Origin: Acidimicrobiia bacterium
Lineage (GTDB): Bacteria > Actinomycetota > Acidimicrobiia > Spongiisociales > UBA5794
NCBI GenBank assembly: GCA_030066875.1
Contig: JASJAS010000002.1
Location: forward strand, 212-64,211
Length of the DNA: 64,000 nucleotides
Reading direction: 5' to 3'
Positions 13,887 to 28,217 of the stretch are shown here, piece by piece (position 1 is the stretch's first letter; each line of letters opens with the position of its first letter). Made by a program: the position numbers and the translations under genes. A model generated the notes under the pieces. It was not told the origin of the DNA and searched no databases. It saw only the letters and a list, made by a program, of their open reading frames with translations.

Positions 13887-14513
13887 ATGATCGAGCGGGC
13901 ATTGTGGAATGAGAGGTACCGGGAGAGGGGAGCGCTGTGGGGCGCTGCGCCCAACCAGTTTGTCGTCGACCGGCTGCGCGGGCTAGAGCCGTGTCGAGTG
14001 CTCGATCTGGGAGCGGGGCAAGGTCGCAACGCAATCTGGCTGGCGGAACAGGGGCACCGGGTCACCGCCGTCGACCTGTCCGATGTAGCCATCGAGCAAG
14101 CTCGAGAGCTCGCGGCGGGTGCAGGAGTCGAAGTGGACCTCGTCGCGGCGGACCTCAGTGCCTGGGAACCAGAGGCCGCGTCCTTTGATCTGGTATTGCT
14201 GGTGTACGTGCAGGTGCCGGAGGACCTGCGCAAGGAACTCCATGCCAAGGCGATCGGGGCGCTGGCACCCGGGGGGCAGGTTGTGGTGATCGCACATCAT
14301 CGCGACAACCTCGATCACGGAGTTGGTGGCCCGCCCATGCCGGAGATCTTGTTTGATGAGGAGTTACTCGCGGCCGACTTCGCTGAGCTCGACGTCATCG
14401 AGAACGGCCGGGTATTGCGGCATGTCGACCGGGATGGCGTGAAAGGTGACGCCATCGACATTGTCTTCATGGCGCGGCGGGTGGGCCAGCGCGGCTCCGT
14501 TGGGGCGGACTAG
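13887..14513 (+). CDS. Class I SAM-dependent methyltransferase.
   Basis: SAM motif I 'VLDLGAGQGRNAIWLAEQGHRVTAVD'. 208 aa. Confidence 0.8.
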   Translation: MIERALWNERYRERGALWGAAPNQFVVDRLRGLEPCRVLDLGAGQGRNAIWLAEQGHRVTAVDLSDVAIEQARELAAGAGVEVDLVAADLSAWEPEAASFDLVLLVYVQVPEDLRKELHAKAIGALAPGGQVVVIAHHRDNLDHGVGGPPMPEILFDEELLAADFAELDVIENGRVLRHVDRDGVKGDAIDIVFMARRVGQRGSVGAD

Positions 14514-20444: not shown

Positions 20445-22325
20445 ATGGGAAATCTAATGCCGACCGGCAAAACCAAGGGGTTCTTGATCGGAGCGGGCGC
20501 GCTCGGTGTGCTCGCCGTGCTCGCAGCCGGACTGCTTATGACGCGGGCGGATTCCTCGTCCTGTGAGGCCTCGGTCGATCACCCTGATTGGTCGGTGGCC
20601 CGTCGCTGGGATGAAGCGGCGCTGAACGCGGTGCGACGCGATCTCCCGGCTCCCACCGTCCACGCCCGCAACCTCTTTCACATGTCCTCGGCCATGTGGG
20701 ACGCCTGGGCCGCATTCGAACCCGCCGCCAGTGGTTACTTCGTCACCGAGGACCACAGCTCCGACGACGTTACAGCAGCCAGGGCGGAGGCAATCAGCTA
20801 CGCGGCCTACCGGATACTCGAGCACCGCTACCTCGACGCCGCCGGTGGCTCTGACTCGATCCCGGAGTTCGATTCCCTGATGGAATCGATGTGCTACCCG
20901 ATTGACGTCACGACCACTGAAGGCGACAGTCCGGCGGCTCTGGGGAATCGAATCGCTGCAATGATCATCGAACTCGGGTTGGTTGATGGCTCTCGGGAAT
21001 CCGATCGCTACGTTGACGATTCCTATGCTCCCGTGAACGACGCCCTCACCGTTGCCGCGTCGGGCACCGCAATGATCGACCCCAACCGTTGGCAGCCGCT
21101 GCAGATCGAGAACATGATCTCGCAAAACGGTATCCCTGTCGTCGATGGCATCCAGGAGTTCATCGGTCCACACTGGGGTCATGTAACCGGGTTTGCTTTG
21201 CCCGCCGATGCGGGTGACGGGCTGCCGCTCGACCCCGGTCCGCCCCCGTTGCTGGGCAATCCGGCCACCGATCAGGAGTTCAAGGATGCTGCGGTCGAGG
21301 TGGTTCGCTTCAGCAGTTTGCTCGATCCTGCCGCCGACGTCGTTGTCGATATCTCGCCGGCAACTCTGGGCGACAACGCCCTTGGAGTCAACGACGGAAC
21401 CGGCCATGTGCAGAACCCGGTGACCGGTCAGCCCTATGCGCCCAACCTCGTCAACGAAGCCGACTTTGGCAGGGCGGTCGCCGAGTTCTGGGCGGACGGA
21501 CCCAATTCGGAGACTCCGCCGGGGCATTGGAACACTCTGGCCAACGAGGTCTCCGACCAGCTCACTGAACTCCGGATTGGCGGCACCGGCCCGGTGGTCG
21601 ACCGACTCGAGTGGGACGTGAAGCTGTATTTCGTTCTCAACGGGGCGAACCACGATGCCGCCATCGCTGCCTGGGGAGCCAAGGGCTACTACGACTATGT
21701 GCGACCCATTTCGATGATCCGCTACATGGGTGGTCTCGGACAGTCGAGCAACCCGGATGGAGAGGCGTATCACCCCGACGGGCTCGTGCTGGCACCCGGC
21801 TTGGTCGAGGTGATCACCGTAGAGACGACGGCCACCGGAGGACCGCATGAGCACCTTGCCGGGCACGAAGGCGAGATAGCGGTGCTGGCATGGACGGGCA
21901 CCCCGGAAGAACCCGAAGTCCAAATCGGCGGAGTGGCGTGGGTGAGGGCAGTCGACTGGGTCCCGTACCAGCTGCCGACGTTCGTGACGCCGTCCTTCGC
22001 AGCGTATGTGTCTGGTCACAGCACGTTCAGTCGAGCCTCCGCGGAGGTGCTCGCCGGGTTCACCGGCAGCGAGTTCTTCCCATCGGGTTTGGGAAGCTGG
22101 ACTATCCCCCAGGACTCGTTCGAATTCGAGGCCGGTCCGGCGACCGATGTCGTGTTGCAGTGGGGCACCTACTACGACGCTGCCGACCAAGCCGGGCTTT
22201 CCCGCCTGTACGGCGGGATCCACGTGAGCGCCGACGACCTGAAGGGTCGCCTACTCGGTGCGGAGATTGGCCAGACGGCATGGTCGCTGGCTCAGGTGCA
22301 CTTCGGGCGGCCGGGGAATGGCTGA
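20445..22325 (+). CDS. Secreted or membrane-anchored PAP2-superfamily protein (vanadium haloperoxidase / acid phosphatase-like).
   Basis: N-terminal TM/signal 'FLIGAGALGVLAVLAAGLLM'. All three PAP2 motifs are present: KX6RP ('KGYYDYVRP'), SGH ('YVSGHSTF') and SRX5HX3D ('SRLYGGIHVSAD'). Confidence 0.75.
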   Translation: MGNLMPTGKTKGFLIGAGALGVLAVLAAGLLMTRADSSSCEASVDHPDWSVARRWDEAALNAVRRDLPAPTVHARNLFHMSSAMWDAWAAFEPAASGYFVTEDHSSDDVTAARAEAISYAAYRILEHRYLDAAGGSDSIPEFDSLMESMCYPIDVTTTEGDSPAALGNRIAAMIIELGLVDGSRESDRYVDDSYAPVNDALTVAASGTAMIDPNRWQPLQIENMISQNGIPVVDGIQEFIGPHWGHVTGFALPADAGDGLPLDPGPPPLLGNPATDQEFKDAAVEVVRFSSLLDPAADVVVDISPATLGDNALGVNDGTGHVQNPVTGQPYAPNLVNEADFGRAVAEFWADGPNSETPPGHWNTLANEVSDQLTELRIGGTGPVVDRLEWDVKLYFVLNGANHDAAIAAWGAKGYYDYVRPISMIRYMGGLGQSSNPDGEAYHPDGLVLAPGLVEVITVETTATGGPHEHLAGHEGEIAVLAWTGTPEEPEVQIGGVAWVRAVDWVPYQLPTFVTPSFAAYVSGHSTFSRASAEVLAGFTGSEFFPSGLGSWTIPQDSFEFEAGPATDVVLQWGTYYDAADQAGLSRLYGGIHVSADDLKGRLLGAEIGQTAWSLAQVHFGRPGNG

Positions 22326-23955
22326 TGTTCCGACCCCCGGCAAGCGTTTCTGGATGTGGTTGGGGCTTGGGGCACTCGTTGTAGTCGCCGGTGGTTTCCT
22401 TCTCGCCAGTAGAGGCGGTCCGGTCACGCCGACCGAGGCATTGCCGCCCCCTGTGTTCGTCGACGACACCGCATCGTCGGGAATCGTTCACGTGTACGAC
22501 GGTGATTTCGAGTTCTTTGTCGGCGGCGGGGTTGCGGTCTTCGATTGCGATGGCGATGGTCGCCAAGACCTCTACCTAGCGGGTGGGGCGAATCCTGCCG
22601 CGCTGTACCAGAACCGGAGCCAGACGGGCGGGAGCCTGAGGTTTGCAGCCATCGACAGTGCCCATACCGATCTCACAGACGTCACCGGCGCCTACCCACT
22701 CGATGTGGACTCGGACGGCCATTTAGACCTGGCGGTGCTTCGTGTCGGGGAGAACGTCATGCTGCGCGGTCTCGGCGGTTGCCGTTTCCAGCGCGCCAAC
22801 GAACTCTGGGGTGTCGACGGGGGGAACGACTGGACCGCCGCGTTCAGTGCCAAGTGGGAGGGAAGCAACACGTTGCCGACCCTTGCATTCGGCAACTACC
22901 TCGAGTGGCCCGTGGACCGCGAGCAAGTGGCCCAATGTGCCGACAATGTGCTGCATCGCCCGCAGGGGAGCGCCTACGGTGAGGCAACCGTCTTGTCTCC
23001 CGGCTGGTGCACGCTGTCAGTGCTGTTTGCCGACTGGGATCGCTCTGGGCGCGGGGACCTGCGGATCGCCAACGATCGCCACTACTACCGGGATGGTTCC
23101 GAGCAGTTGTGGCGAGTTGCGGCCGGCGAGGCACCCCGGTTGTACACGGAGGCCGAGGGCTGGGAGGAGATTCAGATCTGGGGGATGGGCATTGCCAGCC
23201 AGGACGTCACCGGCGATGAATACCCGGAGTTCTTTATCACCAGCCAGGGGGACAACAAGCTGCGTACCCTCGAGAACGGGCCGGATCAGCCGACATACGA
23301 TGACATCGCGATCCGGCGGGGTGTGACCGCCCACCGGCCCTTCACCGGTGACGACGTATTGCCGTCGACGGCGTGGCATCCGGAGTTCCAGGATGTCAAC
23401 AATGACGGATTCCTCGACCTCTTCGTTACCAAGGGCAATGTCGAGGCGATGCCGGAATACGCCATGGCCGACCCCAACAATCTCCTACTCGGCCAACCCG
23501 ACGGCACGTTCGAGGAAGGTGCCGGGAGTGCGGGCGTCGCCAGCTTTGCCCGTAGCCGTGGGGCGGCTCTTGCCGACCTCAACCTCGATGGCCTGCTAGA
23601 TCTGGTTGTAGTGAACCGAACCGAGAACGTTCACGTGTTCCGTAACGGCGGTGATGCCGGCAACTGGATAGCGCTGCAACTGACGCAGCCCGGTCACAAC
23701 CGGCACGCCATCGGAGCTTGGGTCGCCGTGGAGATCGGTGACCACGTCGTCTCTCGCGAGGTGAGCGTGGGGGGAGGCCACGCTGGCGACCAGACTGGGT
23801 GGATCCATCTTGGCCTCGGCAAGTCGGACGTCGCCACCGTTCGCGTGACCTGGCCGCAGGGCGAATCGACAACGGCCCATGATGTCCCAGCCGGAACCTT
23901 CCTCGTGCTCGATCGTCTGGCGGCGCCCGAGTATTGGGAACCCCCGTCGCCGTGA
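22318..23955 (+). CDS. CRTAC1-family protein (FG-GAP/VCBS repeats plus an ASPIC/UnbV-like C-terminus).
   Basis: ATG 22318 overlaps the upstream stop (ATGGCTGA). TM anchor 'FWMWLGLGALVVVAGGFLLA'. Repeats 'FDCDGDGRQDLYL', 'DVDSDGHLDL', 'DVNNDGFLDLF' and 'DLNLDGLLDLVV'. Confidence 0.75.
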   Translation: MADVPTPGKRFWMWLGLGALVVVAGGFLLASRGGPVTPTEALPPPVFVDDTASSGIVHVYDGDFEFFVGGGVAVFDCDGDGRQDLYLAGGANPAALYQNRSQTGGSLRFAAIDSAHTDLTDVTGAYPLDVDSDGHLDLAVLRVGENVMLRGLGGCRFQRANELWGVDGGNDWTAAFSAKWEGSNTLPTLAFGNYLEWPVDREQVAQCADNVLHRPQGSAYGEATVLSPGWCTLSVLFADWDRSGRGDLRIANDRHYYRDGSEQLWRVAAGEAPRLYTEAEGWEEIQIWGMGIASQDVTGDEYPEFFITSQGDNKLRTLENGPDQPTYDDIAIRRGVTAHRPFTGDDVLPSTAWHPEFQDVNNDGFLDLFVTKGNVEAMPEYAMADPNNLLLGQPDGTFEEGAGSAGVASFARSRGAALADLNLDGLLDLVVVNRTENVHVFRNGGDAGNWIALQLTQPGHNRHAIGAWVAVEIGDHVVSREVSVGGGHAGDQTGWIHLGLGKSDVATVRVTWPQGESTTAHDVPAGTFLVLDRLAAPEYWEPPSP

Positions 23956-25408: not shown

Positions 25409-26512
25409 TCAGTCGTCCAACGGCCAGAGCCGTCCGTCGGGGAAGAAGGTGAAGTAGTCACGGGGAAATGAGGTGAAGGCGGCCAGCTTGTCGAGTGATT
25501 CACCGTCACTCCCGGCGCCGGTGAAAGGATCGAATACTGCACCCGATGCAGCATCGACCAGACCATCGTCGACAATCTCGAGTTGCACCACGGTGCTGTC
25601 CAGCCTCCGGCTGAATACCGCCCAACGTTCCGGGTCTCTCGGGTCGATCGCCACTGCGATCTCCACTCCTGCGATCACATCGTTGACGACGCCCTCGCGA
25701 CGCAGCGCAGGTACGTCGTAGGCGGCAGATTCGGTGCCCAGGTCGACAACTATCGCCATGTCTTTGAGGTCGAATGCGGTTGCCCAGCCGGGGGCGTCGA
25801 GGGCCAGCGTGTTGGGGTGGGCCGTCTGCCACGCCTCCCAAGTGGTCAGCGCCGACGGCAGCAGCGTGAGGGTGCTTCCTGTCAGCGGTCCCAAGATGGC
25901 TTCACCCAGTGGCTGACTCCAGATTGATCCGGTTTCGTGATCCCACCATGTCATCGCTTGGCCCCACAGCGCTCCCTGGTTGCCCAGCACGATCGCTTCT
26001 CCGTTCAAATCGCGGCGATGGACCATCGCCGTGGCGCAGATCGGTCACCAGGTGACCAGAACCGGGATTCCCTCCAGCGAATCGATCACCATCTCGCGTT
26101 GGTTGAGATGCGTCACCGGGTAGGCCTTGGCGGTCTCGGCTCCGGCGAGTCCGATGACGAGGCTGTCCTCCGGCCAGTCGACTTGGTCCGGTGTGGTGAA
26201 CTCAGGGTTGTAGATGGGAGCGATCTGGTCGCGGTCGAGCAGCTGGCGGTATCCCTCGGGAAGAGGCTCGCCGGCAAGAACCGGGTCGTAGACCGCCCCG
26301 GGATCGACCGGCTCGACGGTTGATTCCGCAGGGTCGGCGGGCTCGACGGTTGATCCCGCCGTGTTGGCCGGCTCAACAGCTGACGTCGGGGGCTCGGTTT
26401 CGGTAGGCCGGTCGACGACACTCTCCTGGGCCACCCCGGAGCAGGCGGCGGCCAATAGCGCAAGACCAATGCCGGCGATCGCTGTCCGGACCGAAGGTGC
26501 TCGCTGCCCCAT
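25409..26512 (-). CDS. DUF3179-family lipoprotein interrupted by a single in-frame TGA (26047..26045). It is either a candidate selenoprotein or a nonsense pseudogene.
   Basis: ORFs 26045..26512 and 25409..26026 are in the same frame, separated by TGA plus 6 sense codons. Lipobox 'LALLAAAC|SG'. The sequence reads 'IPVLVTW-TGA-PICATAMVHRRDLNGE...GSIWSQP', which resembles the DUF3179 hallmark region. Confidence 0.6.
26013..26031 (-). other. SECIS-like stem-loop 13 nt downstream of the in-frame UGA.
   Basis: The mRNA reads CGGCGAU-GGUCC-AUCGCCG: a perfect 7-bp stem and a 5-nt loop containing GGUC. Confidence 0.35.
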
Positions 26513-26621
26513 ACAGCCTCAACATTCCAGTCCGCCAGCCTGTTCCAACTTGTCGCCATTCCGACTCTCTAATCGGCTGGCGCACGTCGACCTACTCGAG
26601 CAATCGCCCGCGAGAACGGCG

Positions 26622-28217
26622 TCAGGTTGCCGTCGGTTCTGTCTCCTTGGTTCTCTTGCCGTAGAGCAAGTCGTGGAGGAGGGCACCGATGAGGACGGCG
26701 ACACCCGTGAACACTGCAGTTCCGATGAGGACGATGACTATCGACACCGTGGTCCGTAGCGCCGATGCCATTGCTGTGATGTCGAGCAATTCGGCGATTC
26801 CCCAGGAGACTCCGAAGGCGGCCAGGCCCCCGATTGCAGCCAGTGGCACAGCCCTTCCCAACTCGGTCGCGAGAGCGGTGATGCGTCGAGCTCCGTCCCC
26901 TTCGCCGTACCAGACGGCAGCCAGAATCGCGGTGTAGATGCCTAGCGCGAGCGTCGATGCCAGGGCCACCCCCCGTATGCCAAAGCCATCCTGCAATATC
27001 ACGTACAGGGGCACCGCGGCGACTGTGGCGGCGGTGCCGACGATCACCGGCGTCCACATTTCTCGGCGGGCATAGAAGGCCCGATTGAGTATCTGGAGGC
27101 CGCCCCAAACCGGAATCGCGAACGCGTAGAAGAAGAGCGCTTGTGCGGTACCAATCGTGCTCTCCGGGGTGAACTCACCGCGTTCGAAGAGCGCCCTGAC
27201 GATGGGAACCGTCATCGCGGCGACTAGAGCGGCGGCCGCCAGCGATGGAATGATCACCCACCGCAACGCTTTGTCGACCGCAAGCCGCATCTCGTGTCGG
27301 CGACCCTCGGCAAAGAGTCGCGCAAGGAACGGGTAAGCCGCCACCCCGACAGCCTGAGCGATAACACCAACCGGAACCAGCATCGTGCGTCTGGCGTAGT
27401 TCAGCTCCGTAGCGGCCCCTTCGCTGACGAACTGGCCGAAGACCCGCATGAAGGTCTCGTCCAGTACAACGATCGACTGGCCGATCATCAACGGGAACGC
27501 AATCATCAGGTATTCCTTGAGAACCGGTTGCCGCCATGGGAGGCGCAGGCTGAGACGCATTCCCACCCGCCGTGCTCCCCACCACTGCAGAGCGAAGTTG
27601 CCTATGAACGCGCCGATTAGCGCTCCCCACACGAACCCTTCGGGGCTGGCATCCGTGACGACCGCCCACCCGATTCCCCCGGCGATGATCCCGAGGTTGT
27701 AGATGATTGGCGCAAGCGTCGGAATCGTGAATACGCCCTTGGTGTATTGCACGGCAGTGAACAGGGCTCCGAGCACAAAGAAGACCTGGGCGGGGAGAAT
27801 GATCCTGGTGAAGCGGACGGTGTTTTCGATCTGCTCAGGGCTGAATCGAGGGAACAGGAGATCGATGATGTGAGGCGCAGCCACCCAGCCGACTGCGACG
27901 AGCCCAACGATGCCGACTGCGATCGGTCTAATGATGGCACTGAGTGCTTCCCAACCGCCGCCCTCGTCATCTTCGGCGAGGAAGCGGGAGAAGATCGGGA
28001 TGAACGTGATCGACAGGAACCCCCCGGCCAGCAGATAGTTCAAGAAGTCGGGAATGGCGAAAGCCGCGACGTATTCGTCGGTGGAAGCGGTGGCTCCTAG
28101 CAGCGAGGCGAAAACGATCTCGCGCAACTGTCCAAGAATGCGGGAGATGAGCACACCGGCTGAGACGATCAACGCCGCCGTCCCCATACGCCTGCCAAGC
28201 GAGGTGGTTGTGCTCAC
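26622..28217 (-). CDS. murJ: Lipid II flippase MurJ (MviN).
   Basis: 531-aa polytopic MOP-superfamily protein. The N-terminus 'VSAGVLISRILGQLREIVFASLLGA' is typical of MurJ. Confidence 0.85.
   Translation of the reverse strand: MSTTTSLGRRMGTAALIVSAGVLISRILGQLREIVFASLLGATASTDEYVAAFAIPDFLNYLLAGGFLSITFIPIFSRFLAEDDEGGGWEALSAIIRPIAVGIVGLVAVGWVAAPHIIDLLFPRFSPEQIENTVRFTRIILPAQVFFVLGALFTAVQYTKGVFTIPTLAPIIYNLGIIAGGIGWAVVTDASPEGFVWGALIGAFIGNFALQWWGARRVGMRLSLRLPWRQPVLKEYLMIAFPLMIGQSIVVLDETFMRVFGQFVSEGAATELNYARRTMLVPVGVIAQAVGVAAYPFLARLFAEGRRHEMRLAVDKALRWVIIPSLAAAALVAAMTVPIVRALFERGEFTPESTIGTAQALFFYAFAIPVWGGLQILNRAFYARREMWTPVIVGTAATVAAVPLYVILQDGFGIRGVALASTLALGIYTAILAAVWYGEGDGARRITALATELGRAVPLAAIGGLAAFGVSWGIAELLDITAMASALRTTVSIVIVLIGTAVFTGVAVLIGALLHDLLYGKRTKETEPTAT

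Follow-up and report, generated by a model that had tools for sequence, protein, structure and literature searches.

Does the single TGA that interrupts a DUF3179 gene in a bacterial genome end translation, reflect damage or error, or encode selenocysteine (Sec)? The gene lies on the minus strand of a 64,000-nucleotide (nt) stretch (hereafter the window; positions 212 to 64,211 of contig JASJAS010000002.1) from the metagenome-assembled genome (MAG) GCA_030066875.1 of a bacterium of the class Acidimicrobiia, and the TGA (26047..26045) falls where the family carries the first cysteine of a CPxC motif. An original prediction, made from the letters of this DNA, had read the triplet as the Sec codon of a candidate UxxC selenoprotein, an interpretation that is supported by the conservation of the TGA, by the Cys found in the homologous column, and by the constraint on a hairpin downstream. 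We consider it very probable that 25409..26512 forms one gene, whose product is an exported all-beta DUF3179 protein, probably anchored by lipid, with the UGA decoded as Sec.

The coding sequence (25409..26512, minus strand; 367 residues plus stop) comprises two open reading frames (ORFs), 26045..26512 (155 amino acids, aa) and 25409..26026 (205 aa), that the ORF listing and the translation place in a common frame, separated by the TGA and the six sense codons CCG ATC TGC GCC ACG GCG, just as had been claimed. Read through, the product has the N-terminus MGQRAPSVRTAIAGIGLALLAAAC, continues as ...GIPVLVTW-[TGA]-PICATAMVHRRDLNGE...WDHETGSIWSQP, and ends at a TGA of its own (25411..25409); translation likewise returned the 367 residues and the LLAAAC that the original prediction had read as a lipobox. 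A Shine-Dalgarno-like GAGG (26517..26520) stands 4 nt ahead of the ATG (26512..26510), 5-8 nt upstream. With Cys substituted for the stop, the read-through matched Pfam DUF3179 (PF11376) at E = 7.7e-44 (150.7 bits, cut-off 27), with the best-matching stretch in hmmscan covering residues 94-240 (25793..26233), which places the protein in the family to which the original prediction had assigned it; no NCBIfam model matched it. The order of motifs, U-P-I-C ... WWDHETGSIWSQP, fits the family alignments, in which CPxC is followed by a W-W-D-H...G-S-x-W-S-Q block. The UGA codon, read as U156 (26045..26047), would supply the first residue of U-P-I-C, and Cys159 (26036..26038), encoded by TGC or TGT in all 80 distinct TGA-bearing forms, would be its resolving or partner Cys. 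Codon bias in the gene is typical (G+C at third codon positions, GC3, 0.74), and the existing source annotation contains the 205-aa downstream fragment (P0001) only.

For the DNA comparison, one genome per species of the GTDB was scanned, resulting in 80 loci, nearly all from Acidimicrobiia MAGs and with several genomes supplying more than one locus; ten further loci were added, giving 90 homologous sites, from about 80 species-level Acidimicrobiia genomes, that were scored for the codon at the TGA column. A metagenome pattern scan for Cys forms bearing the TAMVH peptide gave two matches, and the DNA of the Cys forms was taken via exact-protein look-ups. At the aligned column, TGA was found 74 times and TGC or TGT twice among the 80 loci and the window, and 79 and 11 times, respectively, once the ten further loci were included with the 80, so that the codon carried by close relatives, proposed earlier as a check, proved overwhelmingly to be TGA, across the class. 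Compared with the window, amino acid identity is 62% in the 60 codons that precede the TGA and 75% in the 60 that follow it (n = 79), and differences at the first, second, and third codon positions amounted to 0.26/0.24/0.51 upstream and 0.20/0.13/0.50 downstream, the third position changing about twice as often as the first and second. This coding-type pattern on both sides of the TGA shows that both halves are translated in one frame.

Protein alignments identify the residue that the TGA replaces. All 12 full-length homologous proteins that were aligned have Cys at this column, and in a wider search (11,234 family members at E <= 0.001 among 1.84 billion 50%-identity representatives) Cys was present in 117 of 123 full-length representatives, drawn from the best 141 of at most 520 aa, with both motif positions Cys in 114; the TGA therefore occupies the first Cys of the CxxC, as had been proposed. 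Eighteen more representatives were fragments starting just past the motif, as expected of gene calls split at a TGA. The protein search also returned many full-length W-C-P-L-C homologues and even more proteins of about 206 aa starting with MVHRR, that is, at the Met seven codons past the TGA, a signature of gene callers truncating at a common in-frame stop.

Two family representatives (P0140 and P0155) read W-W-P-L-C/S at the Sec column, most likely a TGA translated as Trp by a genetic code 4 call, and the top-scoring family representative (P0121; 1,587 aa) is a multi-domain form with three DUF3179 stretches. Contigs often carry two copies: a Sec form directly followed by a Cys form (L085:298 and 1425), a Cys and a Sec form (L028:10277 and 11429), or two Sec forms (L058:10316 and 17126).

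Elsewhere in the window TGA is an ordinary stop, terminating the DUF3179 gene itself and 14 of 18 checked Pfam-supported genes, and the recoding is therefore local; a global reassignment of the codon was ruled out by the same observation. A search of the 64 kb for other TGA-interrupted genes revealed no second selenoprotein gene, the frame, GC3, and hairpin filters leaving only boundaries between adjacent genes and non-coding frames.

Bacterial Sec codons are followed by a selenocysteine insertion sequence (SECIS), for which the bSECISearch criteria are a stem-loop soon after the UGA and, about 16-37 nt away from it, an apical loop that carries a conserved G (GGU). The window has a hairpin with such a loop at such a distance (26013..26031, minus strand), beginning exactly 13 nt past the TGA and overlapping the codons Thr-Ala-Met-Val-His-Arg-Arg. 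It consists of a 5' arm CGGCGAU (26031..26025), a loop GGUCC (26024..26020), and a 3' arm AUCGCCG (26019..26013), and the perfect 7-bp stem with its 5-nt loop, present in the sequence as originally described, is the dominant local helix predicted by RNAfold. The helix comprises 7-8 bp, and the loop (nt 24-28, counting the U of the UGA as 1) has five nucleotides, or three if the G-C closing pair forms.

The hairpin is retained in relatives, the earlier proposal that it should be conserved in TGA-containing orthologues having been borne out by all seven stem pairs in 78 of 80 distinct TGA forms and by frozen synonymous sites. The codons ACG (Thr), GCG (Ala), and CAT (His) occur in 80/80 of these forms, each with a synonymous entropy of 0 bits; ATG (Met) occurs in 77/80 (0 bits), GTC (Val) in 72/80 (0.52 bits), and CGC (Arg) in 74/80 with a further five CGT that turn a G-C into a G-U pair (0.34 bits). 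By comparison, the codons on either side of the hairpin (Pro, Leu, Cys, and Ala/Gly immediately ahead of it; the second Arg, Glu, Leu, and Gly behind it) show synonymous entropies of 0.9-1.9 bits. In the remainder of these 80 genes ACG accounts for only 35% of Thr codons, and the shares of GCG among Ala codons, CAT among His codons, and CGC among Arg codons are 31%, 31%, and 36%; the codons fixed in the hairpin are thus not the preferred ones, and the frozen synonymous positions are exactly those that form the 7-bp stem. RNAalifold recovered the same consensus helix, in which five G-C pairs have become G-U. The 11 Cys forms divide into five that retain the whole seven-pair stem, and look like recent Sec-to-Cys conversions, and six in which only 4-6 pairs are left after changes such as CAT to CAC, GCG to GCC or to GGG, and ATG to either CTC or ACG. 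As judged from these substitution patterns, the putative SECIS is under RNA-level selection only where the TGA is present, and the case for it consists of synonymous-site constraint and decay in diverged Cys forms, not of covariation.

Several results weigh against Sec decoding and are gathered here. On the side of the RNA, the 71-nt segment containing the hairpin folds no better than its dinucleotide shuffles (z = 0.25); the covariance-model check suggested with the original prediction gave no Rfam SECIS or other relevant family at the gathering score, nor at E <= 10 in 25800..26250; no compensatory double change was seen in the main helix (0, RNAalifold), which displays invariance instead of covariation; and the hairpin overlaps a strongly conserved peptide, TAMVHRR. 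On the side of the machinery, the 64-kb window contains no tRNA gene of any kind, hence no tRNA-Sec; ARAGORN reported no tRNA-Sec among 91 tRNA lines from the 80 related loci (1.2 Mb); and tblastn with Escherichia coli SelA, SelB, and SelD gave no hit below E = 0.1 in either the window or the 80 loci, while a DUF3179 query, run as a positive control, was recovered. The literature yielded no experimental selenium incorporation in any DUF3179 protein. We do not count the missing Rfam match against a SECIS function, the Rfam models covering few bacterial SECIS elements. Of the 1,692 TGA triplets in the 64 kb (63% G+C), about 1% are followed by a perfect 7-bp hairpin at equal spacing, and given that background, the shuffling score, and the Rfam result, the hairpin taken alone is weak evidence; the case therefore rests on the comparison with relatives, and it is comparative conservation that lifts the feature far above chance.

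Sec use in the class is attested more broadly. A 2026 preprint reports selA, selB, selC, and selD in 84/84 complete genomes of Actinomarina, another lineage of Acidimicrobiia. Three of our Acidimicrobiia contigs carry Sec genes of other families, each confirmed by Pfam and each belonging to an established selenoprotein family (PMC9312934). A glutathione peroxidase gene (L092, 715-717, minus strand) has a TGA at the catalytic Cys in NVASK-U-GLTPQY, followed by the hairpin GCAGGUCUGC (ACGCA-GGUC-UGCGU) with GGUC at nt 25, and the source annotation there contains only a 36-aa fragment. A CMD/AhpD-like gene (L013, 618, minus strand) has a TGA at the active-site Cys of C-H-Y-U (CxxU) with a hairpin whose GGUC is at nt 22, and directly adjoins a DUF3179-Sec gene. 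An OsmC-like gene (L028, 20010, plus strand) has a TGA at the active-site Cys of U-M-L-T (UxxT), with a hairpin loop starting GGU according to the hairpin scan, on a contig that also carries two DUF3179 copies. Members of the class that carry DUF3179-Sec genes therefore rely on Sec in several proteins, all with one type of SECIS. A further in-frame TGA (L044:11701, plus strand) occurs in DFITPVG-U-GKPAE ahead of a 6-bp hairpin with a GGTC loop; its read-through of 101 aa has no Pfam match and may be a small selenoprotein or a chance occurrence.

Under the Sec reading, the apical loop of the hairpin 26031..26013, with its GGUC, would lie about 21-25 nt past the UGA, and the hairpin, acting as a bacterial SECIS, would bring SelB-GTP-Sec-tRNA(Sec) to a ribosome stalled at this codon; Sec would thereby become the first residue of the U-P-x-C motif. 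We infer this SelB-dependent insertion from the comparative evidence. The default reading of an interrupted ORF, and the one implied by a source annotation that calls only the 205-aa P0001, is instead that a nonsense mutation has left a pseudogene, or that a TGC or TGT codon was wrongly sequenced or assembled as TGA, which was also the null hypothesis of the original prediction. It was excluded, with next to no probability left to it, by the presence of TGA at 79 homologous sites in independent species-level assemblies, by purifying selection in frame on both flanks, and by a hairpin under RNA-level constraint that accompanies the TGA.

A second rival is termination at the UGA, either with a 155-aa exported N-terminal piece and a 205-aa C-terminal piece started from the ATG at 26026, or in a variant where Trp or Cys is inserted by read-through without Sec machinery. 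Such readings draw on the conserved Met codon seven codons past the TGA, which gene callers have chosen in scores of homologues, and on the failure to find Sec machinery in the window or the 80 loci. However, the Met is equally conserved in the single-chain Cys forms, the downstream piece would lack an export signal, one predicted compact domain would be split, and the near-invariant CPxC motif would be lost from both pieces; moreover, SECIS function, unlike reinitiation, accounts for frozen synonymous sites that build an fdhF-like GGUC hairpin. We regard termination or non-Sec read-through as improbable. A relic, left behind by a recent loss of the Sec machinery in the lineage and no longer made as a selenoprotein, is very improbable: the machinery is only presumptive in the source genome, and the family has seen Sec-to-Cys conversion (11 Cys forms, some of which retain the whole hairpin), but in the window copy the TGA, the reading frame, and the perfect hairpin are all preserved and codon bias is typical, and so it is with close relatives at 73-87% identity.

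The protein is probably located outside the cytoplasm. A bacterial lipoprotein is recognized by a signal peptide with a lipobox, for which a looser PROSITE-type variant exists, and the window protein begins with a signal peptide (26441..26512, minus strand) ending in a lipobox-like LAAAC, with Cys24 at 26443..26441. The Ala at -3 of LLAAAC departs from [LVI][ASTVI][GAS]C and fits the looser rule only, and in place of this lipobox-type signal peptide the homologues have a hydrophobic N-terminal anchor that looks uncleaved. Together, the signal peptide of the window protein and the anchors of its relatives point to an extracytoplasmic location, and the window protein is probably exported and lipid-anchored. 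Between anchor and domain lies a low-complexity tether rich in Pro, Glu, and Thr (26234..26440, minus strand), unalignable among homologues and with a low predicted local distance difference test (pLDDT) score in the homologue model described below. Within the tether the unit STVEP(A/V)DP is repeated, including the near-exact pair STVEPADPAE and STVEPVDPG.

The structure was modelled with AlphaFold2 for the Cys homologue P0003, 64% identical to the window protein, from an alignment of 44 sequences (mean pLDDT 88.9, predicted TM score 0.80). In the model a helix or anchor at the N-terminus and a disordered tether lead into an all-beta domain, with CPLC in a turn between two strands. A thioredoxin-fold oxidoreductase was considered and rejected, the model being all-beta and Foldseek against the Protein Data Bank (PDB) giving no thioredoxin-like match. 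That search returned no significant full-length match, none at E <= 0.001; its best matches, Rieske-type ferredoxins, were weak and partial (E = 0.03-0.09, about 92 aligned columns, target TM 0.45-0.60), and neither a sequence-profile search of the PDB, which found no match, nor Pfam at E <= 10, which gave no Rieske signal, added to them. The model thus places the UxxC at the turn of a beta-hairpin, a knuckle of the CPxCG type, in a predicted non-thioredoxin all-beta fold, and H165 and H192 are invariant in the alignment of full-length homologues. The likeliest chemistry is that of a selenenylsulfide redox couple or, alternatively, of a metal site formed by Sec/Cys(/His), outside the cytoplasmic membrane. 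The more specific idea, that the UxxC is a metal or cofactor site built from Sec156, Cys159, His165, and His192 on a Rieske-like or rubredoxin-knuckle beta-hairpin of an anchored extracytoplasmic protein, is speculative, and we hold it to be rather unlikely; were it true, DUF3179 would be a new kind of exported metallo-selenoprotein and might work with the recurrent FG-GAP/ASPIC and vanadium-haloperoxidase-like neighbours.

Those neighbours belong to a gene order that close relatives have as in the window: MurJ (26622..28217, minus strand), DUF3179, a convergent creatinase-N-like gene, an FG-GAP/UnbV_ASPIC gene, and a DUF6851/VCPO-like gene. ASPIC-like genes occur near DUF3179 in 17 loci and VCPO-like genes in nine, and in L088 an ASPIC-like gene adjoins a Cys form. 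One Cys-form neighbourhood contains OsmC, rhodanese, and a CsoR-type repressor, and another contains DsbD_TM and an AhpC/redoxin gene. These neighbourhoods hint at a redox or metal context but do not amount to evidence for what the protein does. The FG-GAP/UnbV_ASPIC genes and the DUF6851/VCPO-like genes, the latter for a vanadium-haloperoxidase-like helical bundle, were observed at 20445-23955 (plus strand) in the window and in L001, L005-L010, L016, L023, L027, and L031. Farther off, the window carries a small gene for an S-adenosylmethionine-dependent methyltransferase (13887-14513, plus strand) with weak TPMT- and TehB-like Pfam matches, the TehB model being annotated with tellurite resistance.

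The original prediction did not recall DUF3179 among the known selenoprotein families, and in this it was mistaken. A 2022 review of prokaryotic selenoproteins lists a 'DUF3179 domain-containing protein, pfam11376, UxxC/T' (Zhang et al., PMC9312934), the entry is repeated in a 2026 AEM review (PMC13188914), and both credit Zhang & Gladyshev 2007 (PMC1976440), in the text of which we could not match DUF3179 to a named 'OS_HP' family. In Acidimicrobiia and Ilumatobacteraceae, homologues carry the NCBI product name 'DUF3179 domain-containing (seleno)protein', and the literature that mentions DUF3179 gives no function for it. The window gene is a member of this already known selenoprotein family, mis-split by automated annotation, and the selenoprotein catalogue, which already includes DUF3179, is unchanged. 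What the locus does offer is a correction of annotation, an invariant SECIS template, and the chemistry of a non-thioredoxin exported UxxC protein. Annotation breaks or shortens the window gene, and scores of its orthologues in public MAGs, at the Sec codon, and databases hold only the 205-aa C-terminal fragment, without the export signal or the active-site motif. The nucleotide invariance of the hairpin across Acidimicrobiia, a class abundant in marine and sediment settings, could serve as a lineage-specific template for selenoprotein searches.

Among known systems, the thioredoxin-fold UxxC/CxxU selenoproteins (thiol:disulfide interchange and Prx-like proteins) share with the window protein a Sec-for-Cys substitution in a CxxC-type pair, and their DsbA-like forms share its likely extracytoplasmic location, whereas the predicted fold of DUF3179 is all-beta. 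Rieske-type ferredoxins, like the predicted DUF3179 structure, have a Cys pair on a beta-hairpin knuckle, with the conserved H165 and H192 of DUF3179 nearby in sequence, but DUF3179 lacks their CxH...CxxH ligand pattern. The SECIS of E. coli fdhF, which we folded from the segment past UGA140 with nucleotides counted in the same way (U of the UGA as 1), resembles the window hairpin in lying directly downstream of the UGA inside the coding sequence and in its GGUC apical loop; GGUC starts at nt 22 in fdhF and at nt 24 in the window, in agreement with the fdhF-like position originally claimed, whereas the stem sequence of the window hairpin differs, no bulged U is evident, and its role in binding SelB is putative, by analogy with fdhF. 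The closest counterparts are the listed DUF3179 selenoproteins, which have the same Pfam domain, Sec at the first residue of UxxC, and existing Cys-form homologues, and from which the window protein shows no substantive difference, its copy coming from an Acidimicrobiia MAG and having been called as a 205-aa fragment in the source.

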